A DNA stretch of 64,000 nt from an uncultured Pseudomonadota bacterium (GCA_902769055.1 CACXNL010000003.1:20693-84692), one strand, 5' to 3'; shown: positions 4,756 to 48,812, counted from the stretch's first letter. Translations and numbers: made by a program. The notes: generated by a model from the sequence alone, not told the origin.

Positions 4756-5901
4756 ATGGCTTTATTCAACCAATCCGCGAGAAAAGACAAAGAGGTATGG
4801 CAGGATGTTAATGCTGTTCCCTATATCCAGATCGAAGGGGTGACCAAATCGTATGACGAGGTAACGCCTTTAAAAAACATATCTTTGTCGGTTTATAAGG
4901 GGGAGTTTTTTTCGCTTTTGGGAAGTTCGGGTTGTGGCAAAACCACGCTTTTACGGATCTTGGCGGGTTTTGAAAGACCGACATCTGGGAAGATTTTGAT
5001 TGATGGAATTGACATAACGAATTTACCTGCGCATAAAAGACCGGTAAATATGATGTTTCAGTCGTATGCACTTTTTCCACACATGACGGTGTATCAGAAC
5101 ATTGCATTTGGACTAAAGCAAGACAAGCTAAGCAAAAGTGCCATAGACGAAAGGGTGAAGGAAATTCTAAATTTAGTTCAGCTAAACGGATATGGAGACA
5201 GAAAGCCAGATCAACTTTCAGGGGGGCAAAGGCAGCGGGTCGCTTTGGCTAGAACGCTGGTGAAGAGACCGAAGTTGATATTGCTGGATGAGCCACTCAC
5301 TGCCTTGGATAAGAGGCTTAGGGAAAAGACGCAGTTTGAGTTGGTGAATATTCAGGAAAAAGTTGGAATTACATTCATTCTTGTTACTCATGATCAGGAA
5401 GAGGCTATGACGATGTCGACCAGAATGGCTGTTATGGAGGAAGGAAAAATTCTGCAAGTCGGCGTGCCTCATGACGTGTATGAATTTCCAAATTCGCGGT
5501 ATGTTGCTGAATTTATCGGAAGCATAAATCTTTTTGATGGAATAGTTGTTGAGCAGGGCTCAGATCATGTTTTAATAGAAACTCCGGAAATTGAATGTCG
5601 TTGCCATGCTACTTGCACTGGAGCGCTTCCTATCGGTTCGAACATCACTTTAGCGATAAGACCGGAAAAGATTATGATTTCAACAACTAAGCCGGAATAT
5701 CAATACAATTGGACGCAAGGAGTTGTGAAAGAAATCGCTTATCTCGGTGATGTCTCGATCTATTATGTACAATTGGAGTCTGGGAAAATGGTTATGGCGA
5801 CTTTGCCTAATTTGTTGAGGCTTGCTGAAAGGAATTTCCAATGGGAGGATACGGTGTACCTTTTCTGGCGGTCTGAAAATAGCCTGGTATTAACATCATG
5901 A
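4756..5901 (+). CDS. potA: Spermidine/putrescine-type ABC transporter ATP-binding protein
   Basis: Walker A GSSGCGKTT, signature LSGGQRQRVALAR, Walker B LILLDEPL, C-terminal TOBE-like domain. ATGA overlap with the downstream permease. Confidence 0.9.
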   Translation: MALFNQSARKDKEVWQDVNAVPYIQIEGVTKSYDEVTPLKNISLSVYKGEFFSLLGSSGCGKTTLLRILAGFERPTSGKILIDGIDITNLPAHKRPVNMMFQSYALFPHMTVYQNIAFGLKQDKLSKSAIDERVKEILNLVQLNGYGDRKPDQLSGGQRQRVALARTLVKRPKLILLDEPLTALDKRLREKTQFELVNIQEKVGITFILVTHDQEEAMTMSTRMAVMEEGKILQVGVPHDVYEFPNSRYVAEFIGSINLFDGIVVEQGSDHVLIETPEIECRCHATCTGALPIGSNITLAIRPEKIMISTTKPEYQYNWTQGVVKEIAYLGDVSIYYVQLESGKMVMATLPNLLRLAERNFQWEDTVYLFWRSENSLVLTS

Positions 5902-20138: not shown

Positions 20139-21773
20139 TTAGAACCAACCACGGACTGTGGCACCAATCCTTGATAATGCGCTCATTGTCTGGCTAGCTG
20201 CGGCTACCACTCGCCTTATAATAGGTCTAATCCACCTCTCATAGAAGCCCTGAGGACGCTGCTCTATTTTTATTACTTTGTTATGATCATCATTTATGAT
20301 TCGCGCTTGTTTGTTATTTTCGGTCTTCGGTTTATTTTCTTCGGCTATATTGCTCGGATTATTGGCACGCTTTATGTTTTGCGCCTGCTGATTATCGTCT
20401 TTCTCTTTATTCTCACCAGTAGTCTTTTGTGATTCCGTCGTTGACACCTCATTCTCTTCGGCGTTTTCAAATTTATGTGCCTGAGGCTCTTCAGTGTCAA
20501 TGTGGTTTTCTTGTATATTTCTCAATTGTAGTTCCGTGTTTCCTTGCTCATTTATGTGGATCTCATGGTTCTCGGGTTTATCAACTATTGTGTTCTCGAC
20601 TTTGTTGTCTTCTTCGTCATTCGGTTCCGTCTTATTCACTGCTTGATTATCCTTGTTAATCTCTGTCTTGTCTTCCTCCTCATCTGATCTTTCTAGGACT
20701 TCCTGTATAGATAGCTCGTCTTTTTTTTTGAGCTCGTTTTCATCAAGAGCAGGTTGTTGATTTTCGTCATTTAGATCAATTTCCAACTTAATCTCATCAC
20801 GTTTATCACTTTCTTCGTCTGACGGGATCCCCTCTGGCTCCTCGCGCGCTAGTTTCTGGAAAAATTTATCCTGCTGTGCTTGGTTGTGCTGGGCGGTGAG
20901 CTTTTTATACTCGTTTTCTTCTTTCTCCCAGTCAATCGCGCTAATCTCGTTCTTAGGTAGTATCGGGTACTCTTTATGATCTTCTTCATACTGTTCCTGT
21001 AATTGATAATAGAGCTTCTGCGTGCTTATTCTGTGTCTGTTATTACTTAGCCATTTTCTAATTTTTTTCTCTTGTTGGTTCATCTTCTTCTTGTCTGTGG
21101 GTTGAGGAGTATAACCATTGAACATGTAGTATATGTTTAATGGTGTCCTATGTTGGTCACCAAACGCCGATATATTAACACATGGCAGTTTGTCGCAGCC
21201 TTTGAACATTCCATTAGTGTTTATCACATTAGATGTATCGAAAGTCCACATATGTAACTGTCTCAAGTTCTTTAGACCATTGAACATGTTAGTCATAATC
21301 ATAGTCTGGCTGGTATCTACAGACCTAAATTGTATGCTCCATATTGACGTCGACTTATTGAACATCGCGCTACAATCCATCGGCATCTTGACCTTTTTCC
21401 CATGCTCCTCACCAATGATCAGGTGCAACTGCAATTTGGGTGAGTCAAGTCCAGCAAATGCGTCGTCAGCCAATACAACTCGCTTACCGCTAATTTCTCC
21501 AGGAATTGCTAATGTCAGTTCAACATCCCGAGACGGCTTCTGCGTCATAACCAACTTCAAACACACTTCATCCCCAGTCGATCCAGGAACCGTTATGAAT
21601 TTTAGAAACTGCGATTTTAGCTGTGTAGATATTTTGTTCCGCGTGGCTTGGTCTCCAAGATTGCAAAGCAGATTTTGCCTTGCTACGGCGCCATGCGCTA
21701 CCTCAAGACTACTCATTGCCGCGAGCAACACCGCTCCGCTCAGTAACAAGGTTCTGTTTTTCATTTCCATCAT
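20139..21773 (-). CDS. Family member F: secreted protein with a BspA/DUF285-like repeat region, acidic C-terminal half and conserved basic Trp tail
   Basis: 544 aa. Signal peptide MKNRTLLLSGAVLLAAMSSLEVAHG. Repeats of the form MFN..........D.S (CSAMFNKSTSIWSIQFRSVDTSQTMIMTNMFNGLKNLRQLHMWTFDTSNVINTNGMFKGCDKL). E/D/N/K-rich tail region. C-terminus FYERWIRPIIRRVV...RGWF. Confidence 0.75.
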   Translation of the reverse strand: MMEMKNRTLLLSGAVLLAAMSSLEVAHGAVARQNLLCNLGDQATRNKISTQLKSQFLKFITVPGSTGDEVCLKLVMTQKPSRDVELTLAIPGEISGKRVVLADDAFAGLDSPKLQLHLIIGEEHGKKVKMPMDCSAMFNKSTSIWSIQFRSVDTSQTMIMTNMFNGLKNLRQLHMWTFDTSNVINTNGMFKGCDKLPCVNISAFGDQHRTPLNIYYMFNGYTPQPTDKKKMNQQEKKIRKWLSNNRHRISTQKLYYQLQEQYEEDHKEYPILPKNEISAIDWEKEENEYKKLTAQHNQAQQDKFFQKLAREEPEGIPSDEESDKRDEIKLEIDLNDENQQPALDENELKKKDELSIQEVLERSDEEEDKTEINKDNQAVNKTEPNDEEDNKVENTIVDKPENHEIHINEQGNTELQLRNIQENHIDTEEPQAHKFENAEENEVSTTESQKTTGENKEKDDNQQAQNIKRANNPSNIAEENKPKTENNKQARIINDDHNKVIKIEQRPQGFYERWIRPIIRRVVAAASQTMSALSRIGATVRGWF

Positions 21774-21804: not shown

Positions 21805-21833
21805 ATTCTATCCCCCCCCCCCACCTTCGTCAA
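21805..21833 (-). promoter_or_regulatory. Predicted sigma70-type promoter of family gene F with a G11 tract in the spacer
   Basis: Minus strand reads TTGACG-aaggt-G11-a-TAGAAT, giving a 17-nt spacer. The tract is C11 at 21812-21822 on the plus strand. Confidence 0.55.
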
Positions 21834-21901
21834 CATATTTTTTATTATTTTTATCCAAAATTATTCATAAAAATAAAATTCGTGATAAAACTCTAAAAAC
21901 A

Positions 21902-28753: not shown

Positions 28754-28783
28754 TTAACATATGTCGCGGGGGGTGGGGAATTG
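28754..28783 (+). promoter_or_regulatory. Family promoter module of gene E with an interrupted tract (G6-T-G4)
   Basis: TTAACA-tatgtcgc-GGGGGGTGGGG-aattg. Same layout as the other family promoters, but the tract is broken by T at 28774 and no good -10 hexamer follows. Confidence 0.35.
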
Positions 28784-28811
28784 TTCTAGAAGTTTTTAAG
28801 GAGTGTTAAAA

Positions 28812-29946
28812 ATGCAAATGAATGAAAGTAGAGCTCTTTTGCTTGCCGGCGTTGTGATGTTTTCGGCGGTGAGTAGTGTACAGGTAGAATGTCTCCGAAG
28901 CGGATACCAGTGCGCAGTTGCCTTCGTTTATACGCATGAAAATAGGCGACTACGACAATGGGCGACGTTTAGAGTCTTTTTACATTGATGGGTGCCTGGA
29001 TGAATTGACTGATGTGACAGTGATTATTTCTGGAAAGAATGGTCGGTTTTGCCTGGGTGGAGGATGCAAGCCGTTTTTTAACTTAAACATTGAGAACCTC
29101 AGGTTGCATTTGTCCATTGAGAACGGCGTTGAACTACTTGGGGATTGTAGTCAGTTGTTCTATAACTCGTCGTCGATATACAGCATTAAGTTCGAGAATG
29201 TAGATACAAGCCGGATGACCTCGATGAAAGAAATGTTCTGTATTTGCCCGAACATTTCTGAATTAGACTTACGTTCTTTTAACACGAAGAACATAGATAA
29301 GGAAGAGATGGGGTTTTTGTTCAATAGTTGTAACAGCTTGGTTAAGCTGAACATAGCTTCGTTTACAGAAGAACAGAAGGGCACCGATAATGTGCTGAGG
29401 ATGTTTGTTGGTGGTGACGTATTGAAGTCGTTGTCGTTTGACAAAAAACTGGCTTACATCCGCGCTATAAGAGGCAAAGTGGAGATCATAGAAGACGATG
29501 TTGCATGTGAAAACAAGTTTTTGCAATTTGAGCAGCATAGTGGTGAACCTAGTTCATCACAACCGGTGGCTATTGAGTCGGAAAAGGACGAGGATTTGAA
29601 ACTTAATAGCAAAATAACATTGAAGCAAAAGGGAGAACTGACGATCCTAGCGCCTGAAAAATCGAATGAAGTTTCTCATAAAGAAAACAGCCAACTTAAA
29701 GCTGATGTCGAGCGTGAAGAACCGTTTAACAGATTAGAAACACCAATTTCGAGCAGTACATTTAAAAAGAATTCTGAGATTTCGATCGCGAGACCACAGG
29801 TAGTAATAACTAAGGACGATAAAGAAAAAGCAAAAACTGCAACAGTTGAGGTGCAACAATCAAAGCAACATAAACCTTGGTATACTCCTATAGTTAAATT
29901 TTGCAGCTGGGTAAAACGCACAGTTTTGTCATGGTTCGGACGCTAA
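28812..29946 (+). pseudogene. Family member E (DUF285/BspA-like repeats), disrupted by a frameshift between the signal peptide and the body
   Basis: The signal peptide MQMNESRALLLAGVVMFSAVSSVQVE is in one frame (stops at 28988). The homologous body (from 28888, ..SAQLPSFIRMKIG.., DUF285-like CSQLFYNSSSIYSIKFENVDTSRMTSMKEMF, tail KPWYTPIVKFCSWVKRTVLSWFGR) is in the +1 frame. The required shift lies between 28888 and about 28910. Confidence 0.6.
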
Positions 29947-30003: not shown

Positions 30004-30012
30004 GGGGGGGGG
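30004..30012 (+). repeat. Orphan G9 tract inside a degenerate copy of the family promoter module
   Basis: gtgtaacgcgc-G9-tgtggattgtgg resembles gtgttaacatatgtcgc-G6TG4-aattgttc at 28751. It lies 16 nt upstream of the argS -35 box and no family gene follows. Confidence 0.6.
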
Positions 30013-35958: not shown

Positions 35959-36368
35959 TTCATTCTTCTTACAAAAAAGCAAGGAATGCTCCTGTGCAAA
36001 AATTGTGTCGCACACAATGCGTCGTTATTTGCGTTGAGGTTATCGCAAATTTTATGGATTAAAGCTATAAAATCAAGGCTTCTGGTGCGATTTTTATTTT
36101 TTTATACGATTTTGGTAAAAAAAGTTAAAAAATGTGTTGACAAAAGTCGCGGGGGGAGAATTAACTCGTGGTTTTGAAAAAGGTATTAAAAAATGCAAAT
36201 GAAGAAAAACAAAGTCCTGTTATTGAGTGGCACAGTGCTGTTTTCAGTGATGGGCGGTATCGAGAAAGCTAATAGCACCGAAATGCAAAACGAGATGAAC
36301 ATAATCAACGAAGAGAGACCCGTTGTGACAACAAATGTTGAGGAAAACAAGGCTCCGCGCATGGATGA
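35959..36368 (+). repeat. Family 5' cassette, copy A (upstream region, promoter, 5' UTR and first ~58 codons)
   Basis: Near-identical by eye to 41553-41963 (inverted) and 45042-45370 (direct). Similarity ends abruptly after the codons for ...ENKAPR. Confidence 0.8.
36137..36161 (+). promoter_or_regulatory. Family promoter of gene A with a G6 tract in the spacer
   Basis: TTGACA-aaagtcgc-G6(36151-36156)-AGAAT. If the -10 box is GAGAAT, the spacer is only 13 nt. Confidence 0.45.
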
Positions 36369-37412
36369 TGAGATAAAGAAGCGTACTGAAGAGCTTCTGG
36401 GAGGCGGGAAAAATATTGATATTCCTGATGACGGGAGAGAATACGTAGTAGTGCACCGCTTGAAAAAATTAAGAACGGATAAAGATATCGATAATGAGTT
36501 GCAAGTTGCTGTGCACCTGGCAGAGAGGGGAGAAGTATCCCTCCAATATTACAACGAGGATTTGCGAGAGTACTTTGAGGGGGAGAGACGTTTACGCGCA
36601 ACTTGGCTGCCGATTTGGGTCTAGAGGGTGTGCCATACGTAAGACCAGAAAATAAGGATAAAAAGCTCGACAATCAAGAATACGTTAAAGAGGAACAAAA
36701 TGAACCATATCGAATTGAGAAAAGCGACAGCAACGTTGACGTAAACTTGCAAGAATGTAAACTGGACTTCCGAGAACTCAAAAAGGAAGAGGAAGATAAA
36801 AAGCAGGACGAGAAAACAGAGCTGAATAATGAGGAAATAAACAATACCAACAATGAGGGCAATGATTTCAACATAAATAACGAAAAACAAGAGCCGGAAG
36901 TTCAAAACACCGCATACATCAATCTTGACGTGACGAAGAAAACACCATACTTTTTCCACGAAGATGAAGACTCAAATGACAACGACCCTACAATGTTGCG
37001 CGATATGCTCCAATATGAAGGCGAGGGCAAGAATGGCAACGAAATACAACAGATAGAGTTAAAAAACGAGATTGATAATGACAACGACATAATAAACTAT
37101 GAGCCAAACAACGACATACTAGGGAACAGCGAAAAAGATCCAGAGTTTCTTGCCAATGAGATGTATGAGAAAGTCACAGGGCAAAAGGTTCCGGAGCACA
37201 TACTAGCATATCAGCGCAAGATATATAATACGTATAAAATTGAGGATAAACAACCTGAGCACTCGATCGATATAGAAAAGGCAACTCACAAGACCTGGTT
37301 CCAAAAAGCGGTAACGACGGTAAAGAGTGGATTAAGTAATGCATGGTCAACTGTAAAACGCGGGTTTAGCTTTGGGTGGAGCAAAGTAAAATCTTCTGTA
37401 TTCAAATGGTAG
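36193..37412 (+). pseudogene. Family member A, split by a frameshift at an internal G5 tract
   Basis: ORFs 36193-36624 (signal peptide and N-terminus) and 36603-37412 (acidic core and tail KTWFQKAVTTVKSGLSNAWSTVKRGFSFGWSKVKSSVFKW) are in different frames. The downstream frame opens exactly at G5 (36579-36583). Paralog B reads GAG GGA GAG AC at the same place (G3). Confidence 0.7.
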
Positions 37413-40738: not shown

Positions 40739-40810
40739 TTCCAATGCTCGAAAGTTCTTTACGCCGCCATTATACCACCTAATCTCATGTGGTGGCTTCT
40801 TTTTTAATAC

Positions 40811-40841
40811 AAAAAGCACATCACCCGTTCAGGTGGTGTGC
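40811..40841 (-). terminator. Rho-independent terminator of family gene B
   Basis: Minus strand reads GCACACCACC-tgaacg-GGTGATGTGC (one mismatch) followed by T5. The sequence is related to the gene A terminator. Confidence 0.65.
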
Positions 40842-40866
40842 CTCGCGTTTCAAGATTTGTGGCGTT

Positions 40867-41724
40867 TTACTTCAACTTAAAGACAGATTTTACTTTTTGC
40901 CATCCAAAGGTAAATCCGCTCTTAATAGCAGTCCAGGCACGGGTTATTCCGCTCTTGACTGTAGTCGCCACTTTGCTATACCAAGGTTTTAACTCTATCT
41001 TCTTTTCGATTATTGTAGATTGACCTTTAAAGAATTCGTTATATTTTATTGGTATTGGTGATTCTTGCTTTTTTACGAAATCGGGCACAGATTGCCCTGT
41101 CTTTTCTTCGTATATTTTATTGAAGGGAAGTGCATCGGCCTCCTTTCTTATGCGGTCACCCTCGCCTTGTTTCTGTGTGAGAGTTATGGTTCCAGTATTA
41201 TCGTTACTCTCTTTAGAAGTACTCAGTTCCTTATTATTCTTTTTATCGTCATTCGTTTTGTCGTCGTTCTCACGTTTTAGATCATATATCTCATTTTCGA
41301 TGCTTAGATCTTGATCGTCGTCTTCTGGGAGCTCTATGATGCTGTGAAGTTTGTTTAGGTATTTACTCGATATTATGAAACTCTTGTTTAGTATGTCGTT
41401 GTGATCTTTCGCCTCTGTGTCCTCCTTATTATCTTTTTCATCCTCGTGATTGTCGGTTAGACCAGATTGCTTCTGATTGTTATTCCTGACGTACGGTACC
41501 CCCACCTTACCTAACGCTTTAGCTACAGTGACAGGCATAGTCTCTCCCTCATATATTCGCGGAGCCTTGTTTTTCTCAACATTTGTCGTCACAACAGGTT
41601 TCTCATCATTGATGATGTTTATCTCGTTCTGTATTTCAGCGCTATTAGCTTCCTCGACACTACCCGTTACTGAGAACAGCACTGTGCCGCCCAATAATAG
41701 AGCTTTGTTTTTCTTCATTTGCAT
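40867..41724 (-). CDS. Family member B: secreted acidic protein with the conserved Trp/Lys tail
   Basis: 285 aa. MQMKKNKALLLGGTVLFSVTGSVEEANS signal peptide, D/E/N/K-rich core, tail KPWYSKVATTVKSGITRAWTAIKSGFTFGWQKVKSVFKLK. Confidence 0.8.
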   Translation of the reverse strand: MQMKKNKALLLGGTVLFSVTGSVEEANSAEIQNEINIINDEKPVVTTNVEKNKAPRIYEGETMPVTVAKALGKVGVPYVRNNNQKQSGLTDNHEDEKDNKEDTEAKDHNDILNKSFIISSKYLNKLHSIIELPEDDDQDLSIENEIYDLKRENDDKTNDDKKNNKELSTSKESNDNTGTITLTQKQGEGDRIRKEADALPFNKIYEEKTGQSVPDFVKKQESPIPIKYNEFFKGQSTIIEKKIELKPWYSKVATTVKSGITRAWTAIKSGFTFGWQKVKSVFKLK

Positions 41725-41963
41725 TTTTTAATACCTTTTTTAAAACCACAAGCTAATTATCCCCCCCCGCGACTTTTGTCAACACATTTTTTAACTTTTT
41801 TTACAAAAGTCGTATAAAAAAATAAAAATTGCACCAGAAGCCTTGATTTCCTAGGCTAAATGTATAGAATTTGCGATAATTTTTTTTTGGTAACGGCGAC
41901 GCATCATGCGCGACGCAATTTTTGCACAGGCGCATCCCTTGCTTTTTTGTGAGAAGAATGAAT
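41553..41963 (-). repeat. Family 5' cassette, copy B (inverted relative to copies A and C)
   Basis: The reverse complement aligns by eye with 35959-36368 from gaattCATTCTTCT.. through the promoter, 5' UTR and first ~58 codons. Confidence 0.8.
41756..41782 (-). promoter_or_regulatory. Family promoter of gene B with a G8 tract in the spacer
   Basis: Minus strand reads TTGACA-aaagtcgc-G8-ATAAT, so the -10 box is GATAAT and the spacer is 15 nt. The tract is C8 at 41761-41768 on the plus strand. Confidence 0.5.
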
Positions 41964-41990
41964 TCTGATACCTCCCTACGCAATTACACC

Positions 41991-42067
41991 TGGTGTCCCC
42001 GGTGGGATTTGAACCTACGACCTCAGGATTAGGAATCCTACGCTCTATCCATCTGAGCTACGAGGAC
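41991..42067 (-). tRNA. tRNA-Arg (anticodon CCU)
   Basis: 77-nt cloverleaf on the minus strand: acceptor GTCCTCG/CGGGGAC (one G-U), D-arm GCTC-AGATGGATA-GAGC, anticodon arm TAGGA-TTCCTAA-TCCTG, T-arm GTAGG-TTCAAAT-CCCAC (one A-C mismatch), ACCA end. Confidence 0.85.
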
Positions 42068-42249
42068 ACGCGCTTCATTGTAGCACGTAGGCGCCGGTGC
42101 CACAAACCATCTTCTACCGCAACGAATAATTGTCACTGGTGGCGGGAGAAAAAATTCAATAAATGCCGAAAACTTAAGCTGTCCATCACAAACGTTAGAA
42201 ATATTTCTCGCATGTGTGTTTTGAACAAAGAAAAATGTTAACAAATATG

Positions 42250-42278
42250 TTGCCGTGAGCAATGATATGAGTTACAAT
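42250..42278 (+). promoter_or_regulatory. Predicted canonical promoter of family gene G, with no homopolymer tract
   Basis: TTGCCG - 17 nt (tgagcaatgatatgagt) - TACAAT, about 34 nt upstream of GTG 42312. The flanking sequence (aaaaatgttaacaaatatgttg) matches the family promoter module. Confidence 0.55.
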
Positions 42279-42311
42279 TGCTCTGTAAGTTTTAAAGAGG
42301 TGTTTTTTAAG

Positions 42312-43352
42312 GTGGAGACAAGAAATATAGTGCTGAGCGGTGCCGTGCTGTTTTCGGTAATCGGAAGTGTAGAGGTGGCGAATGGCGCTGTGTTAAATCA
42401 AGAGATGAAATCAGAATTGGGGGGGGGCAACCACAATTTTCGATCTTCGCTAGCTCCTCTGAAAGGCAAATCTGAATTTGCGGAAGATGCAATAACGCAA
42501 TTGCCTTTGGGGAAAACTAGTAAACCTGGTTTGCTACAGCACGATATGCGAAAAACAGCGGCTATGAGTGAGGATCTTGGTTATCTCAGCACTGAAGGTG
42601 ATATGGCTGAAGATGACCTAGAAGAGCAAAATGCAAATATTTCAGATAATTCCATTGAATTATATATTGTCAATGAAAATAAAGTTGACAAAGGTGAAGA
42701 AATACGTACACACAAAACCATGATAAGCGTGTTGGACGAATTTAAGGACGACGCCTATAACGATGCAAAGAACGAAGATATAAACGAGAATAGCGCCGAT
42801 AAGGAATATGATTTCGATATTGATGATGATCCCGAATATGACGAAGCAGTAAGAAAGCACAAAGATATGATGAAGCGAGGATGTGAAGATAAAAAGGAAT
42901 ACAGTAGCCATGACACTCAAAACGTTGAGGAGTTTATACAGCCTGCGGAGCCACAAAATAGCGGGCGTACTGAGATAACAGAACAACATCGCTACAGGGT
43001 ATCGTCATTTACCATGGAGTTCTCGCCAACGTCATTTACCATGAATCAATCGGGTAACATGACGTTTTCTATAGTGAAGGAAAAAGATTGTGCTGATGAC
43101 GATATCTACCGTCAGCTTTACGAAGTTGCCATGAAGAAAGCCGACGAGACATGGAAGCATGAGCTGTGGATGCAACAACTCTCTTGGTTTGAGCGCACTG
43201 TATACAAGCTGAAAAAGTCGGTGAGTTGTATCGTGCATAAAGCATGCACAACCTTATCAAGGTTTGCGTCCAAATTCACGTCTATCTTCAAAAAGAAGAA
43301 TAGTTCGATTATTTCAAAGAGGATACGTGGAGAGGTTCCGCCTCTAGCGTGA
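42312..43352 (+). CDS. Family member G: secreted acidic protein with a G9 tract in the coding region
   Basis: Probable GTG start after AAGAGG. Signal peptide (V)ETRNIVLSGAVLFSVIGSVEVANG, acidic core, basic tail LSWFERTVYKLKKSVSCIVHKACTTLSRFASKFTSIFKKK. The ORF-track ATG at 42255 lies inside the predicted promoter. Confidence 0.7.
   Translation: METRNIVLSGAVLFSVIGSVEVANGAVLNQEMKSELGGGNHNFRSSLAPLKGKSEFAEDAITQLPLGKTSKPGLLQHDMRKTAAMSEDLGYLSTEGDMAEDDLEEQNANISDNSIELYIVNENKVDKGEEIRTHKTMISVLDEFKDDAYNDAKNEDINENSADKEYDFDIDDDPEYDEAVRKHKDMMKRGCEDKKEYSSHDTQNVEEFIQPAEPQNSGRTEITEQHRYRVSSFTMEFSPTSFTMNQSGNMTFSIVKEKDCADDDIYRQLYEVAMKKADETWKHELWMQQLSWFERTVYKLKKSVSCIVHKACTTLSRFASKFTSIFKKKNSSIISKRIRGEVPPLA
42419..42427 (+). 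repeat. Intragenic G9 homopolymer (codons for Gly-Gly-Gly) about 36 codons into gene G
   Basis: gaa ttg GGG GGG GGc aac. Read by hand, a -1 slip reaches TAG after 10 codons and a +1 slip reaches TGA after about 19 codons. Confidence 0.9.
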
Positions 43353-43562
43353 GAGGATTACTTTTTCACTAATTACGAAGCTGTTGATGAGACATCATCG
43401 TCAGCTTCAGTGCGTGAAGCGGGCGATGCTACGTTTCGTGGCTGTGTCGTTATAAGCAAAAAGGATTGTAGCAAAATCTCCGATTTCTCGAATGGTAAAT
43501 TTGGACTTCGGACATAAGGATAAACTTTTTGGATAATTTTTAACATAAAAGATACAAATAGT

Positions 43563-43591
43563 ATTGACATATGATGCGGGGGGGGGGACAA
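43563..43591 (+). promoter_or_regulatory. Family promoter of gene D with a G10 tract in the spacer
   Basis: TTGACA-tatgatgc-G10(43577-43586)-ACAAT, so the -10 box is GACAAT and the spacer is exactly 17 nt. Confidence 0.55.
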
Positions 43592-43623
43592 TATGCCCCG
43601 TAAACTTCGATGGAGTGTTAAGA

Positions 43624-44919
43624 ATGAAAAGAAATAATTTGTTGCTGGGCGGCACAGTGCTGTTCTTGGTATCTGGGGGTATGGAGATGGCACATGCCTC
43701 TGAGATGAAGCATGAGGTGACCTGGAAGACGCGACTGAATTTTGATATGCCAAAGACAATAAGTCAAAAGCTGGGAGCGCCGGAAAGAGGTTTCCGCTCT
43801 GCGCAAAGGATAATGCAGGGTGGTAAAGCTCACACAAAGTTGCCTAGTTTTCAGAGCAACAGTACAGAGGATGATCAAAGCGACGGCAACGGGGTGGCTG
43901 AGGAGTTAGATCAAAAGTTTGTCAGTGGACAAAAGATACGCGAAGATTTTGAATACAACGTGGGCATGGAGGAGTTCGGCGAGGAAACACTCGGTGAAAA
44001 TCTCCCTGGGGTAGGGAAAGTATCTGGAAGCGTAATTGGCACTTCGGGCTCGTATTTTAAGAACACCGTTCACAAGAAGGATGGCGTGGATCTTTCGGAG
44101 AAGAGTATCGACCCAAAAGTTAAGGCGCAAAACACGTATAGTTTTACGCAAAAAAGCAAAGAGTTCGATGACATGATGGGGCTAGATGAAGGCGTCGATC
44201 CGATCAGCTGCTTAGTTCCGAGTTCAAATAAGGGTGATAAGAATGACGTGGCTCTCGGGAAAGTACATCCATACAGTCCTAAAAGTGCGTTAAGGTACTT
44301 TACGCATACGCATAAGAAGGGGGATCGTCGTGAAGGTAATGAATCTGAGATAATAGAACCGCAGAGTGCCTTGTATAACATAAGCAATGCGATTACCACG
44401 AACAAGCTGGAGATTAACGACAAGAAAAACGAGGACGATGAAGAAATACCGAATATAAAGAGAAACCTAGGCGAGGACTTTGCTGAGGATTTCCAGAATG
44501 AAGACGAGGTGAACGATAAGGAGAACGCAATTGGAATAAAGGAAGATCAAGGTAATTGCTCAGAAGATGTTAAAGGGGACGATAAAATCGAAAACGCTAA
44601 TAATGAAGAGAAAGTAAAAGGAGAATCAGCCGATAAAGACGCGCAGTTGAATAATATAGCCCTGAACGCGAGCAAAGAACTTCAGATTAACGAGCAGGTT
44701 TTGGGCAAACAGACCACAGATGAAATAATCGACCCGAGTACTAAACAAAGCGAGACTATAAAGAAGAACAGCGACGATGATAATAATAACAAAATAGTCG
44801 TTGAGTATGAAAAGCCAAGAAAGTGGTACAGTGGTATTATTTCAGTAATAAAGCGCGCTGTAAATTACGTGGTAACTTCCATCAAATCTGGATGGAAAAG
44901 TCTGAAATCTCGATTTTAA
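43624..44919 (+). CDS. Family member D: secreted acidic protein with the conserved Trp/Lys tail
   Basis: Start MKRNNLLLGGTVLFLVSGGMEMAHA after GGAG. 431 aa. E/D/N/K-rich C-terminal half. Tail RKWYSGIISVIKRAVNYVVTSIKSGWKSLKSRF. Confidence 0.8.
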   Translation: MKRNNLLLGGTVLFLVSGGMEMAHASEMKHEVTWKTRLNFDMPKTISQKLGAPERGFRSAQRIMQGGKAHTKLPSFQSNSTEDDQSDGNGVAEELDQKFVSGQKIREDFEYNVGMEEFGEETLGENLPGVGKVSGSVIGTSGSYFKNTVHKKDGVDLSEKSIDPKVKAQNTYSFTQKSKEFDDMMGLDEGVDPISCLVPSSNKGDKNDVALGKVHPYSPKSALRYFTHTHKKGDRREGNESEIIEPQSALYNISNAITTNKLEINDKKNEDDEEIPNIKRNLGEDFAEDFQNEDEVNDKENAIGIKEDQGNCSEDVKGDDKIENANNEEKVKGESADKDAQLNNIALNASKELQINEQVLGKQTTDEIIDPSTKQSETIKKNSDDDNNNKIVVEYEKPRKWYSGIISVIKRAVNYVVTSIKSGWKSLKSRF

Positions 44920-44929
44920 ACTTACTTCC

Positions 44930-44963
44930 GGAGCGAACTGATACAGGCTCGCTCCGTTTTTTT
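44930..44963 (+). terminator. Rho-independent terminator of gene D
   Basis: GGAGCGA-actgatacaggc-TCGCTCC, then G and T7. Confidence 0.7.
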
Positions 44964-45041
44964 AAATCACCATAGATAAAGGATTGTGCTCTTCTGTGGG
45001 ATTAGCGCTAGCTGGGAGATGCGTTACTTTCGACGAAAGAA

Positions 45042-45370
45042 ATTGTCGCAAATTTTACAGATTAAAGCTAGGAAATCAAGGCTTCTGGTGCAGATTTTAT
45101 TTTTTTTACGATTTTGGTAAAAAAAGTTAAAAAATATGTTGACAAAGGTCGCGGGGGGGAGAATTAACTTGTAGTTTTGAAAAAGGTATTAAAAAATGCA
45201 AATGAAGAAAAACAAAGTCCTGTTATTAGGCGGCACAGTGTTGTTCTCAGTAATGGGCGGTATCGAAAAAGCTAATAGCGCAGAAATACAGAACGAGATA
45301 AACATCATCAACAAAGAGAAACCTATTGTGATAAACAACACTGAGGAAAACAAGGCTCCGCGCATGGATG
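45042..45370 (+). repeat. Family 5' cassette, copy C
   Basis: Aligns by eye with 36040-36368 (..tcgcaaatttta..aatcaaggcttctggtgc..ttgaca..atgcaaatgaagaaaaacaaagtcctgttatt..). Confidence 0.75.
45139..45164 (+). promoter_or_regulatory. Family promoter of gene C with a G7 tract in the spacer
   Basis: TTGACA-aaggtcgc-G7(45153-45159)-AGAAT. With a GAGAAT -10 box, the spacer is 14 nt. Confidence 0.45.
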
Positions 45371-45999
45371 AGAATGTTAACAATATCGAGAATCCAGTGA
45401 ATATCGATATTCAGAAGCGTGTAAAAGAGGTGCTAGGAGACGGTGATGACTTCGAAGATCCTAAGGATAGCAAAGAGCGAGTGGTATTTAATCCATGCGA
45501 TACGGATGAGAAAAAGCAAGAGGGGATACTGCTGAACATAGAATATGTAGAACGAGGTGTCCAGAATGTAAAAACTGCAAACCACGCTATAACTGATGTA
45601 CTGGAGGGGCAAACGGTCGAAAAGGAGTATATAGATCCAGGCATGGAACCGTATTGCAAACCGTATACACCGAATAAAAACGAGAGCAATGAAGAAGATA
45701 AGAAGGAAAATGACAATAACATAATAACAAAAACGACAAATGAAATTGAGTTCACCAAAATGTATGAACAGGAAACAGGTCAAAAAGTTACTGACAGCGT
45801 CAAGCAAATGCAGAACGAGATACTAAGCAAGTACACCGTTGAGACTAAGAAACCTATGGATGCGAACGATGTAGAGCAAGCGAAGTCGGTGACTTGGTAT
45901 GGCAAAGTCTTCAATAAGGTCAAGCATGGACTCAATTATGTTTGGACTAGTATAAAGACTGGATGGAGCAAAGTAAAGTCTATTTTTAAGTGGAAGTAA
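45196..45999 (+). CDS. Family member C: secreted acidic protein with the conserved Trp/Lys tail
   Basis: 267 aa. MQMKKNKVLLLGGTVLFSVMGGIEKANS signal peptide. Tail VTWYGKVFNKVKHGLNYVWTSIKTGWSKVKSIFKWK. Confidence 0.8.
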   Translation: MQMKKNKVLLLGGTVLFSVMGGIEKANSAEIQNEINIINKEKPIVINNTEENKAPRMDENVNNIENPVNIDIQKRVKEVLGDGDDFEDPKDSKERVVFNPCDTDEKKQEGILLNIEYVERGVQNVKTANHAITDVLEGQTVEKEYIDPGMEPYCKPYTPNKNESNEEDKKENDNNIITKTTNEIEFTKMYEQETGQKVTDSVKQMQNEILSKYTVETKKPMDANDVEQAKSVTWYGKVFNKVKHGLNYVWTSIKTGWSKVKSIFKWK

Positions 46000-46027
46000 A
46001 CCGATACTCGGGAGCACCATATAAGGG

Positions 46028-46060
46028 GCACTATCTGAATGGATAGTGCTTTTCTTTTTT
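46028..46060 (+). terminator. Rho-independent terminator of gene C
   Basis: GCACTATC-tgaatg-GATAGTGC followed by TTTTCTTTTTT. Confidence 0.7.
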
Positions 46061-46161
46061 GCAATGAGTGGGAAAGGGCGTTTTAAGTACAAATTGTACA
46101 TTACCCCAGCACAGATGTTGACGGCTAATGTCGCTAATGCTACAATGGGAGCATCGTTCGA

Positions 46162-46238
<77 letters not shown>

Positions 46239-46254
46239 AATTTAATCGAGAGCG

Positions 46255-47349
46255 TTGGTGTTTGGTTCTTTAAAACGGGTATCACACAAAACTCCAGAGA
46301 AGCAGGTGGGCGCGTATCCGGGGCGTCTTATAGGGAAGTTGATATACGCTCCTGGGAAGTTTTCTTTCGTTAAAGCGGTGGATGTTGCGATCAAATCGTG
46401 CGATGTGGATTTCGTAAGCATTAAGTCGAACATCAATTATTCTTCCAAATATACCGACGTTTCGGTGATTGAGGGATTGAAGGATGGTATTGCCGAGATA
46501 TATGTGAATACGTCGGGAATATCTGGAATAGATGGTATATTGCCGGATTGCTATACCGAGGAGTATATAACGCATAATAGCGAGCATAAAAAGGCGGTTG
46601 TCGATTTTTTGGATATATTTAACGAACGCATATTGATGCTACGATACAGGTATTTAAAAAGACAAAACGTCGAGACACTCTCTGTACCGATCGAAAAATC
46701 GCTTATTGGAAAAATAATTTATAGCCTTTCAGGATTTGGCTTTGATGAAGATCATGAACGGGTAGTTCCGAATATTATTCCAGAGCAGTTTAAGATTTCC
46801 GTACAAAATTTGCTGTGGAGGTATACACGTTCCGCTTCGGGATTAAAAGCCATTCTTGAGAGCTTCTTTAAAATACCTGTAGAAATACGTCAGTTTGAAG
46901 GAGGATTTGTTCGGGTAAGTCCCGGAGAACAAACATCAATTGGAAAGAGGGGAAATTATAATAAATTGGGGCAGAACAGTTTCTTAGGGGATAAAGTTTG
47001 GGATGCGACGCAAGGTATTACAATTTTGATTGGCGCTTTAGATTTCAAGCAGTATGCTAAATTTTTGCCGAAACAATCTCATTTGGATCAAAAATTCTCG
47101 CCGCTTCAAAAGATGAAAGAGATAATAAGGCTATACGTCCCACATGGAATTAAGGTCAATTTACGTTTCTTTTTGGATAAATGTGCGGTAAAAGGTACTG
47201 TTTTAAACGGGACAGAGCGATTGAATAAAGATTCTTTTATATTTGGAGTGCATGGTTCTAAAAGTGCTTTTTTTGAGGAGATACGAAACCTGAAAAAGAA
47301 AAGAAGCCTTCGATGGCTAATCCAAAAAGTTTCCCTAGTATTACTTTGA
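46255..47349 (+). CDS. tssG: Type VI secretion baseplate subunit TssG (ImpH family)
   Basis: 364 aa. Matches TssG landmarks by eye: FSFVKAVD, GIDGILPDCYTEEYI, VVDFLDIFNERILMLRYRYLKR, FFKIPVEIRQFEGGFV, LGQNSFLGDKVWDATQGITILIGALDFKQYAKFLP, LRFFLDK. TTG start 17 nt after the tRNA. Confidence 0.85.
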   Translation: MVFGSLKRVSHKTPEKQVGAYPGRLIGKLIYAPGKFSFVKAVDVAIKSCDVDFVSIKSNINYSSKYTDVSVIEGLKDGIAEIYVNTSGISGIDGILPDCYTEEYITHNSEHKKAVVDFLDIFNERILMLRYRYLKRQNVETLSVPIEKSLIGKIIYSLSGFGFDEDHERVVPNIIPEQFKISVQNLLWRYTRSASGLKAILESFFKIPVEIRQFEGGFVRVSPGEQTSIGKRGNYNKLGQNSFLGDKVWDATQGITILIGALDFKQYAKFLPKQSHLDQKFSPLQKMKEIIRLYVPHGIKVNLRFFLDKCAVKGTVLNGTERLNKDSFIFGVHGSKSAFFEEIRNLKKKRSLRWLIQKVSLVLL

Positions 47350-47780: not shown

Positions 47781-48812
47781 ATGAACAGAAAGTTAGCAGT
47801 AGCAGCAGCTATGACCGCGATTGTCGCATCAACACCTCAAGCAATGGAAGCAAGTCCAAAGGCACAAGCAGAAGACACATTAACAACTCGCAGACAATTT
47901 GATGTATTGTGCGCAACGACAAATGCCTTTAATCCAGCATCGATAGGTTTAATGCAACAGCAATTTGACCTGATACAGCGGAAGTCTAGAGTTTCGATCG
48001 GCTTAGAGCAAACTGAGATGAGCAACTCACAAAATGGAATCGCGATATTGTTGAATGGATATGCACATAACCTAACTCATTCTATGAATTTTATGGATGA
48101 TAGAACATCAAAAAGTTTACTAGTGGCATTACTCGAGCAAGAAGGAAAGAAAGATTTACTAAAAAATTTGAAGATACCAGCTTTACATTTCGAAAATGGC
48201 GAAAAAGAGGGCTTCGATCCTGAAAAATATATCATTTTCGTGAATTACAACAAGTATAAAGCGGATGGCACGATGAAAGAGCCGGTTTGCGGGTATGACC
48301 AAGAGACTGGGCAAATCGTACCCAAAAATATTACGGTGCAACATGCTGTGTATCGTGGATTTATGACTGCTAGTGATTACTTGACGCATCATTTATTCCC
48401 AAAACACTGGGATGTTGCAAAACCACTTGATATCATTTATGGCAAATCGGATATTCATAAATCGCTTTGGAAAACAGACGATTCTTTTGCTACTCCGGGA
48501 GATAACCTGTTAGCAATTTCTGGCGCAGTGGCATCGAAAGATGAGGTAGAACATCTCCCATTCAGTGAGCAACTGTTTGATTATTTCGAACATCGTCGCA
48601 AATCGCCTGGACAAAAGTTTATCCCTCGTGTGTTTTCAGTAACGTATAGAGAATATCAACAAATTGCTAAAGCAAATCCAAAAGCAGATCTTTTGCTGAA
48701 TATCACAAAAACGATATGCCCTGCTGTGAAAGATGAAGAAGCTCAAAAGAAAGAAAACCTCGAAGCATTGAAGTTTTTGAAAAGTTTGTTTCTAATTAAC
48801 AACAAAGCATAA
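47781..48812 (+). CDS. Secreted protein of unknown function
   Basis: 343 aa. Signal peptide MNRKLAVAAAMTAIVASTPQAMEA. Globular, non-repetitive, no motif recognised. Confidence 0.65.
   Translation: MNRKLAVAAAMTAIVASTPQAMEASPKAQAEDTLTTRRQFDVLCATTNAFNPASIGLMQQQFDLIQRKSRVSIGLEQTEMSNSQNGIAILLNGYAHNLTHSMNFMDDRTSKSLLVALLEQEGKKDLLKNLKIPALHFENGEKEGFDPEKYIIFVNYNKYKADGTMKEPVCGYDQETGQIVPKNITVQHAVYRGFMTASDYLTHHLFPKHWDVAKPLDIIYGKSDIHKSLWKTDDSFATPGDNLLAISGAVASKDEVEHLPFSEQLFDYFEHRRKSPGQKFIPRVFSVTYREYQQIAKANPKADLLLNITKTICPAVKDEEAQKKENLEALKFLKSLFLINNKA

Follow-up and report, generated by a model that had tools for sequence, protein, structure and literature searches.

A candidate intragenic poly-G switch in gene G, a predicted exported protein of an uncultured Pseudomonadota bacterium

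A stretch of 64,000 nucleotides from an uncultured Pseudomonadota bacterium (GCA_902769055.1 CACXNL010000003.1:20693-84692; the whole of it is referred to here as the window, G+C 41.9%) contains seven members of a paralogous gene family, in the order A, B, C, D, G, E, and F, and one of these, gene G, carries a run of nine guanines (G9) within its coding sequence. Comparison of this run among strains and paralogs suggests that gene G is probably a translational phase-variation locus operated by slippage at the intragenic tract. The tract exceeds the threshold of approximately 8 nt that we adopted for hypermutable G/C homopolymers (PMC5084427), translation runs through it, one strain has an ON and another an OFF allele, and the OFF allele is otherwise intact. 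Length polymorphism between strains is the standard in-silico criterion for phase-variable repeats, and in Neisseria meningitidis it was mostly G/C tracts of at least 8 nt that deep sequencing confirmed as variable (PMC5084427).

In the mechanism that we propose, gene G would encode an exported protein of a small lineage-restricted family, transcribed from a promoter of fixed geometry (TTGCCG-17-TACAAT) and gated at the level of translation by the G9 run in codons 36-39. Slipped-strand mispairing during replication would add or remove one G, with tracts of 3n length (G6, G9, or G12) giving the full-length protein and G8 or G10 giving a frameshift and a stop after 46 or 54 residues, such that only the signal peptide and a short tail would be made. 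The window would represent the ON state and a sister strain the OFF state. In the six paralogs a G tract would instead occupy the promoter spacer, where its length would set the distance between the -35 and -10 hexamers, and the family together would constitute a repertoire of surface or secreted proteins, each of which is switched on its own. The scheme presumes that switching is reversible at high frequency, that the promoters function, and that the proteins are exported, as it does any adaptive value.

Reading frames and tract length of gene G

The first-pass annotation had placed a G9 run at 42419-42427, about 36 codons into the gene and just past the signal peptide, and this placement agrees with our own count, in which the tract begins at codon 36 from the GTG at 42312 and occupies codons 36-39, approximately 11 residues past the predicted cleavage site. 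The encoded protein consists of a signal peptide, an acidic middle, and a basic amphipathic C-terminus, the signal peptide having a brief polar stretch at its start, then a hydrophobic core (IVLSGAVLFSVIG, with a Kyte-Doolittle hydropathy of 2.4 on average), and an A-N-G/A site that fits the -3/-1 rule. Translation of the frame states gave a full-length frame (345-347 aa) with G6, G9, or G12. With G8 the reading continues as ..GGATTIFDLR, that is for 10 more codons, to a TAG, the same outcome that had earlier been read by hand. With G10 it continues as ..GGGQPQFSIFASSSERQI to a TGA, and the earlier figure of about 19 codons to this stop is correct when counted from the start of the tract but not from the last Gly, from which the distance is 15 codons. 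Both off-states truncate the protein soon after the signal peptide, as had been claimed, with products of 46 aa (G8) and 54 aa (G10).

These frame states depend on the tract being translated, and the choice of start codon was therefore considered with some care. The longest open reading frame (ORF) begins at GTG 42255 and a metagenome gene caller took ATG 42267 (361 aa), both of which fall within the promoter hexamers or upstream of them. Alignment with the paralogs and with P0003, a homolog of 40% identity, places the start at GTG 42312, opposite the homolog's ATG; P0003 is encoded on contig L007, which also serves as the outgroup below. Over the 36 codons that precede the tract, gene G and P0003 differ at a proportion of 0.63 of synonymous sites (pS) and 0.18 of nonsynonymous sites (pN), and because the divergence is biased in this way towards synonymous change, the stretch evolves as coding sequence in this frame. 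The tract falls inside the coding sequence (CDS) with either start, GTG 42312 or ATG 42267. The latter was set aside, being upstream of the -10 hexamer at a position whose homologs in the paralogs are non-coding. A start downstream of the tract, which would leave the run untranslated and which the first-pass annotation had named as a possible objection, was rejected. No in-frame Met follows the tract before residue 78 (MRKTAAM...), from which the product would have no signal peptide, and the alignment with the homolog's ATG, the coding-type divergence, and the signal peptide common to the family all argue for translation through the tract.

Other assemblies of the locus were recovered by exact-protein look-ups in public assemblies. 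The tract states reported here are those of consensus assemblies from two close lineages and of one distant homolog. The tract was G9 in four assemblies of the window strain, namely the window itself and three others that are identical to it across the locus (L001, STEW19 SAMEA5383851; L005, ERZ1029114; L006, Logan ERR3220192). Three further assemblies had G8 (L003, ERZ1048193; L004, STEW19 SAMEA5383985; L088, ERZ27280604). They belong to a sister strain that shares approximately 93% nucleotide identity with the window over 9 kb and in which gene G is called as a 61-aa fragment followed by a fragment of 263 or 278 aa. The tract is thus not fixed at G9, the other circumstance that had been named as speaking against a switch.

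The two strains differ at 239 aligned positions over 41635-45303, and within the approximately 640 bp from 41935 to 42577 the missing G is the sole difference between them. Because only the indel differs in these 640 bp despite an overall divergence of about 7%, the tract mutates faster than bases are substituted. When G9 was restored in L004, an intact ORF of 341 aa resulted, in which two other indels are in frame, and the ratio of nonsynonymous to synonymous substitution rates (dN/dS) of the G8 allele relative to the window allele was 0.32 (0.29 in the divergent part). The outgroup L007 encodes the same L-G-G-G with an interrupted run of in-frame length, TTA GGG GGA GGC, and because of that length G8 is a derived one-base deletion. 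By these comparisons the OFF allele arose recently, in a gene that has been under purifying selection and has no other lesion, which is the pattern expected of a slippage switch.

A difference of one base in a homopolymer could also be an error of sequencing or assembly, the true tract being the same in both strains, and the assemblies do contain an example of such trouble. At a promoter of the type shared by paralogs C and F, L004 reads G14 (5045-5058) where L003 (7940-7953) and L088 (5045-5058) read G11AGA. Over 6.5-7.9 kb the sister-strain assemblies show no mismatches other than these two, and the G14 is probably a sequencing or assembly error beside a long G run, which is a warning about homopolymer calls in general. 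Assembly L003 is itself imperfect, with ftsH and glmM broken. As an account of the tract in gene G, an artefact is nevertheless most improbable, for G8 occurs in three assemblies of different accessions (scaffold_514, STEW19 scaffold_202, and a k141 contig), G9 in four, one of which is a Logan single-run assembly, and the state of the tract follows the strain background without exception.

Promoter tracts in the paralogous family

Gene G belongs to the family by its signal peptide, its C-terminal motif, and its promoter flank, and a profile search recovers it together with the paralogs. Common to the members are the signal peptide, an acidic variable middle (approximately 20% Asp+Glu), and a basic amphipathic C-terminal motif, W..VK..G...W..IKSGW.KVKS.F, with residues N5, L8, G10, V12, E21, A23, W292, and F322 invariant in the family alignment; gene G has in addition a tail of 24 residues beyond the motif. 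The 22-nt upstream flank that ends in the -35 hexamer, aaaaatgttaacaaatatgttg, is found again, with no more than 3 mismatches, at four further promoters of the family (21831-21852 and 41780-41801 on the minus strand, 36118-36139 and 45120-45141 on the plus strand; 0 copies expected by chance), so that gene G does keep the family promoter flank, as had been noted earlier. The ordinary 17-nt spacer before TACAAT that the same annotation described is likewise there, both to the eye and in a promoter scan of the window, which reports TTGCCG-17-TACAAT at gene G. No homopolymer lies between the gene's own -35 and -10 hexamers, and gene G itself is therefore outside the class of promoter-spacer, or transcriptional, switches.

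Every member other than G has a G tract immediately after a TTGACA-type -35 hexamer (Table 1), and A, C, D, E, and F carry a promoter-spacer homopolymer in the sense of that class. The -10 hexamers of the paralogs were aligned on conserved downstream sequence, which would put the spacers at 17 nt for A and E and at 13-16 nt for the other paralogs; the 17 nt of gene G equal those of A at G11. In the sister strain the promoter of D has G9, with a spacer that is 1 nt shorter overall (G8 in the window), a promoter of the C/F type has G11 (G6 and G7 in the window), and that of E has G10 in both strains. The sister strain also contains an extra member, X, which occupies 530-1649 on the minus strand of L004, is present in L003 and L088 as well, and has a promoter tract of G10. 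Gene calls from other samples read through the family promoters as 'LTKVAGGGEN' and 'LTKVAGGEN', which are further length variants. Judged from these alignments, tract length is labile across the family, and the earlier argument that two slippage mechanisms within one gene family strengthen the contingency-locus reading gains from the finding that the paralog promoter tracts vary between strains.

The family cassettes also coincide with rearrangements. Repeats of approximately 330 bp with 86-89% identity span the promoters and 5' coding parts of C, D, and F (36040-36368, 41548-41886 in reverse orientation, and 45043-45371), and the order of the blocks C-glmM-ftsH-D and tRNA-Arg-G-E is swapped between the window and the sister strain (L004 1560-5200 and 5292-10835). 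Because the breakpoints fall in the repeats, the cassettes seem to mediate chromosomal rearrangement.

Table 1. Positions in the window of the elements of gene G and of its paralogs
Feature	Position	Strand	Basis or remark
Family promoter flank of G, ending in -35 hexamer TTGCCG (42250-42255)	42231-42255	+	
Spacer of G, tgagcaatgatatgagt, 17 nt, ordinary sequence without homopolymer	42256-42272	+	Identical in sister strain
Putative -10 hexamer of G, TACAAT	42273-42278	+	Promoter scan; aligns with TAGAAT of paralog A and CATAAT in L007
Shine-Dalgarno-like AAAGAGG, ending 11 nt before start codon of G	42294-42300	+	Read from sequence; same arrangement in paralog A and L007
CDS of G, GTG start, 346 aa	42312-43352	+	ORF; start aligned with ATG of P0003/L007
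Predicted signal peptide of G, residues 1-25	42312-42386	+	Hydropathy and conservation in paralogs; predicted cleavage site
G9 tract of G, proposed slippage switch, ON in window	42419-42427	+	TTG GGG GGG GGC = L36 G37 G38 G39
TAG stop of G8 (or G11) state, 46-aa product	42451-42453	+	61-aa gene call of sister-strain contigs ends here
TGA stop of G10 (or G7) state, 54-aa product	42473-42475	+	
Conserved C-terminal basic amphipathic motif of G, W292..F322	43185-43277	+	Alignment; charge and helical-moment calculation
Paralog A	20139-21773	-	DUF285 domain
Promoter tract of A, G11 (C11 on plus strand), TTGACG-17-TAGAAT	21812-21822	-	A is the paralog most like G in the 5' region
Paralog B	from 28812	+	DUF285 domain
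Promoter tract of B, G6TG4	28768-28778	+	Interrupted
Paralog C	from 36193	+	
Promoter tract of C, G6		+	
Paralog D	40867-41724	-	
Promoter tract of D, G8 (C8 on plus strand)	41761-41768	-	
Paralog E	43624-44919	+	
Promoter tract of E, G10, TTGACA-17-GACAAT	43578-43587	+	
Paralog F	45196-45999	+	
Promoter tract of F, G7	45153-45159	+	

Chance, gene decay, and slippage in expression

Long G/C runs are far commoner in this sequence than chance would predict. Runs of at least 8 nt account for 12 overlapping 8-mer matches in five tracts, compared with 0.33 expected from dinucleotide shuffles of the window, and four of the five lie at family genes, three in promoters (21812-21822, 41761-41768, and 43578-43587) and one in the coding sequence of gene G. 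The fifth, a G9 at 30004-30012, is unattached to the family; it is situated past the end of paralog B and upstream of argS, and a promoter-like site, TTGACC-17-TACAAT, lies 15 nt downstream of it. Among the 37 long ORFs of the window there are 10 Gly-Gly-Gly (GGG) sites, and a homopolymer is used only at that of gene G, the other nine avoiding the run.

Several observations weigh against a maintained switch. In the codon usage of the window GGG accounts for 21% of the codons for Gly, and G is the last base in 48% of those for Leu, from which a G9 at an LGGG site has a probability of approximately 0.02 per GGG site, and several would be expected genome-wide in the absence of selection. Because a coding G9 is on its own not very improbable, the significance of the tract lies in its length polymorphism and its family context. 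The homopolymer is not conserved past the two close strains and is young, two synonymous A-to-G changes relative to the interrupted run of L007 having made it. Within each strain all of the consensus assemblies agree, and they may share reads. A further coding G9 appears to be present in an essential gene of the sister strain, ftsH, where QGGGK is written CAA GGG GGG GGG AAA (L004 9291-9299, minus strand); the window has CAG GGA GGC GGG AAA at the matching site (codons at about 40330), and assembly L003 lacks 63 bp exactly at this G9. The assembly may be at fault at ftsH, or else an essential gene can tolerate a coding G9; because the sister strain's ftsH carries such a run, a coding G9 is not by itself diagnostic in this lineage, and tracts of this kind can be present where they serve no switch. 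Finally, other members of the family are broken. Paralog B is frameshifted just past the signal peptide at a non-repeat site (28763-28988; ORF 28918-29946) and is probably a pseudogene, paralog C (36193-37412) has a +2 shift at a G5 (36579-36583, GAGGGGGAG) that splits it into 143 aa and 269 aa, where the sister strain has GAGGGAG (G3) and an intact 424-aa gene, and in X of the sister strain a +1 shift at a run of A8 (AAGGAAAAAAAAGGC) leaves pieces of 81 aa and 308 aa. Because these members are plainly degenerate, the G8 allele of gene G could be the first step of gene loss.

Taken together, these points describe an alternative in which the G9 arose incidentally, as a neutral outcome of synonymous codon choice at a conserved Gly-Gly-Gly, and the G8 is a recent and in effect irreversible pseudogenisation within a family whose members are being lost, the site being prone to mutation but not maintained as a switch. 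The occurrence of the same peptide with an interrupted run in the distant homolog, the unexceptional probability per site, the G9 in ftsH, the frameshifts in B, C, and X, and the agreement of all three sister-strain assemblies on G8 are as this alternative would have them. It accords less well with a G8 allele that has no second lesion and a dN/dS of 0.32, with an indel so recent that it stands in a substitution-free block of 640 bp, with the position of the tract at the classic 5' location just past the signal peptide, with the use of the same kind of tract at variable lengths in the paralog promoters, and with the avoidance of a homopolymer at the other nine GGG sites of the window ORFs. We judge incidental origin and decay to be unlikely, though by no means negligible, and favour slippage at a contingency tract.

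The intact and constrained state of the G8 allele would also be compatible with slippage of RNA polymerase or of the ribosome on the G run, in which case both genomic states would give a mixture of full-length and truncated product and the tract would tune dosage or rescue G8. Transcriptional slippage on long homopolymers is known to rescue frameshifted genes in some endosymbionts with reduced genomes, which we count as indirect support. Inspection of the sequence around the tract found no stimulatory structure or slippery heptamer, Rfam gave no element in the region, and the promoter tracts of the paralogs would be left unexplained. In addition, transcription is reported to slip less readily on G runs than on A/T runs (PMC5084427), and we hold this explanation to be very unlikely in comparison with slippage during replication, as proposed above for gene G.

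Poly-G tracts were also seen outside the two strains. Tracts of G10 occur in intergenic DNA near ftsH of related rumen and Holosporales metagenome-assembled genomes (MAGs; L011 2004-2013, L017 1425-1434, and L018 11132-11141), that of L017 following 'gtcgc', as in the family promoters, and preceding a MarR-like ORF. The use of such tracts may extend more widely through the clade.

Lineage, distribution, and relation to known switches

Gene G had no match in Pfam, NCBIfam, or PDB, and an AlphaFold (AF2) model built from a 3-sequence alignment had a predicted local distance difference test score (pLDDT) of 36, too low to be of use. The protein may be exposed at the surface; it has a signal-peptide-like N-terminus and a basic amphipathic C-terminus, and paralogs A and B carry a DUF285 domain. 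When 1.84 billion representative proteins were searched exhaustively with the family profile, only 15 representatives of the family were found, among which a GGG following the signal peptide was found only in G and P0003; a profile search of a word-indexed protein database was saturated by low-complexity words and returned 4 proteins. A protein-pattern scan found no orthologs of gene G in the GTDB species representatives, and the JGI metagenomes gave no match to a gapped DNA pattern across the tract or to protein patterns. In the FtsH neighbourhoods of the nearest GTDB relatives (L008-L022) the family was not found, except for one DUF285 match in L009. A regulatory RNA at the locus was considered and rejected, Rfam giving only two tRNAs in 40800-46300.

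The FtsH protein of the window is 86-89% identical to those of the rumen MAGs RUG14192, RGIG3458, RUG11852, and RUG14374, 73-78% identical to those of MAGs labelled Holosporales, and at most 56% identical to those of other Alphaproteobacteria. The names of the contigs also indicate studies of rumen metagenomes. The bacterium that carries gene G is an alphaproteobacterium of the rumen, and among named groups the Holosporales are nearest to it. The Holosporales are known as endosymbionts of protists, and a symbiotic lifestyle of the present bacterium is offered as conjecture. A literature search on phase variation in Holosporales or rumen alphaproteobacteria found no paper.

Slippage at simple sequence repeats is textbook material in Neisseria, Haemophilus, Campylobacter, Helicobacter, and Treponema, where it is usually read as evasion of vertebrate immunity or of phages. 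The mechanism considered here is thus already known; new for such a switch are the protein family and the lineage. The closest parallel is pilC of Neisseria, in which a poly-G in the region that encodes the signal peptide causes translational phase variation and switching has been measured. Gene G shares with pilC a G run in the 5' coding part of a predicted exported protein, truncation in or after the signal peptide upon change of a single G, and ON and OFF alleles among strains. Unlike pilC, it encodes an unrelated protein, with no detectable homology, in another organism, and its switching is putative.

Mixed promoter and 5'-coding repeats are known from the Hop/Sab proteins of Helicobacter pylori, which are beta-barrel outer-membrane proteins with CT dinucleotide and poly-T/A repeats and whose paralogs recombine. 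The present family resembles them as a single paralogous family with repeats in promoters and in 5' coding sequence and with apparent recombination among paralogs, and differs in the use of poly-G and in having no recognisable fold. Homopolymers in promoter spacers are known from fim of Bordetella (poly-C), porA and opc of the meningococcus (poly-G/C), and tprE/G/J of Treponema pallidum (poly-G). Six paralogs of gene G likewise carry G6-G11 between their -35 and -10 hexamers, setting the length of the spacer; the spacer of gene G, unlike these, has no tract, and the gene matches the class only through its relatives. In Campylobacter jejuni and N. meningitidis, each genome has several G/C tracts of at least 8 nt, mostly in surface-related genes and placed both within genes, where they switch ON and OFF by frameshift, and upstream of them, where they act on promoter strength (PMC3025981, PMC5084427). 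Both placements occur here too, and in both cases candidates are recognised by polymorphism between strains. In contrast to those species, the tracts here are concentrated in a single paralogous family with a promoter cassette in common, and they belong to an uncultured rumen alphaproteobacterium represented by assemblies.

A wider interpretation would be that of a multi-gene 'phasome', in which a private exported family with a mobile promoter/5' cassette has each of its members switched independently by poly-G in the promoter spacer or in the 5' coding region, recombination of the cassettes reshuffles genes as well as chromosomal gene order, and a bacterium that is probably a symbiont of rumen ciliates, hosts without adaptive immunity, varies its surface in a programmed manner. 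We put this forward tentatively and consider it doubtful as a whole. If switching at these tracts is real, stochastic surface variation would extend to a lineage that likely lives with or in rumen protists, and counts of tract length in rumen read sets that already exist would provide a testable handle on which proteins mediate the interaction with the protist. The locus also has a practical side, in that automatic annotation of these MAGs splits genes of the family or starts them wrongly, as with the 61-aa and 263-aa fragments of gene G, the ATG at 42267 inside its promoter, and the read-through of promoter tracts.

Directly downstream of the family cluster and a tRNA-Met lies a lone homolog of TssG of the type VI secretion system (46255-47349; Pfam E = 1.5e-47), followed by a 343-aa signal-peptide protein without known domain (47781-48812). 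At 47281 the window lacks 51 bp that are found in two otherwise identical assemblies (L001 12087-12137 and L002 3099-3149), and this deletion takes away the stop codon of tssG together with the beginning of the gene that follows (111 aa), leaving a fused tssG ORF extended to 364 aa.

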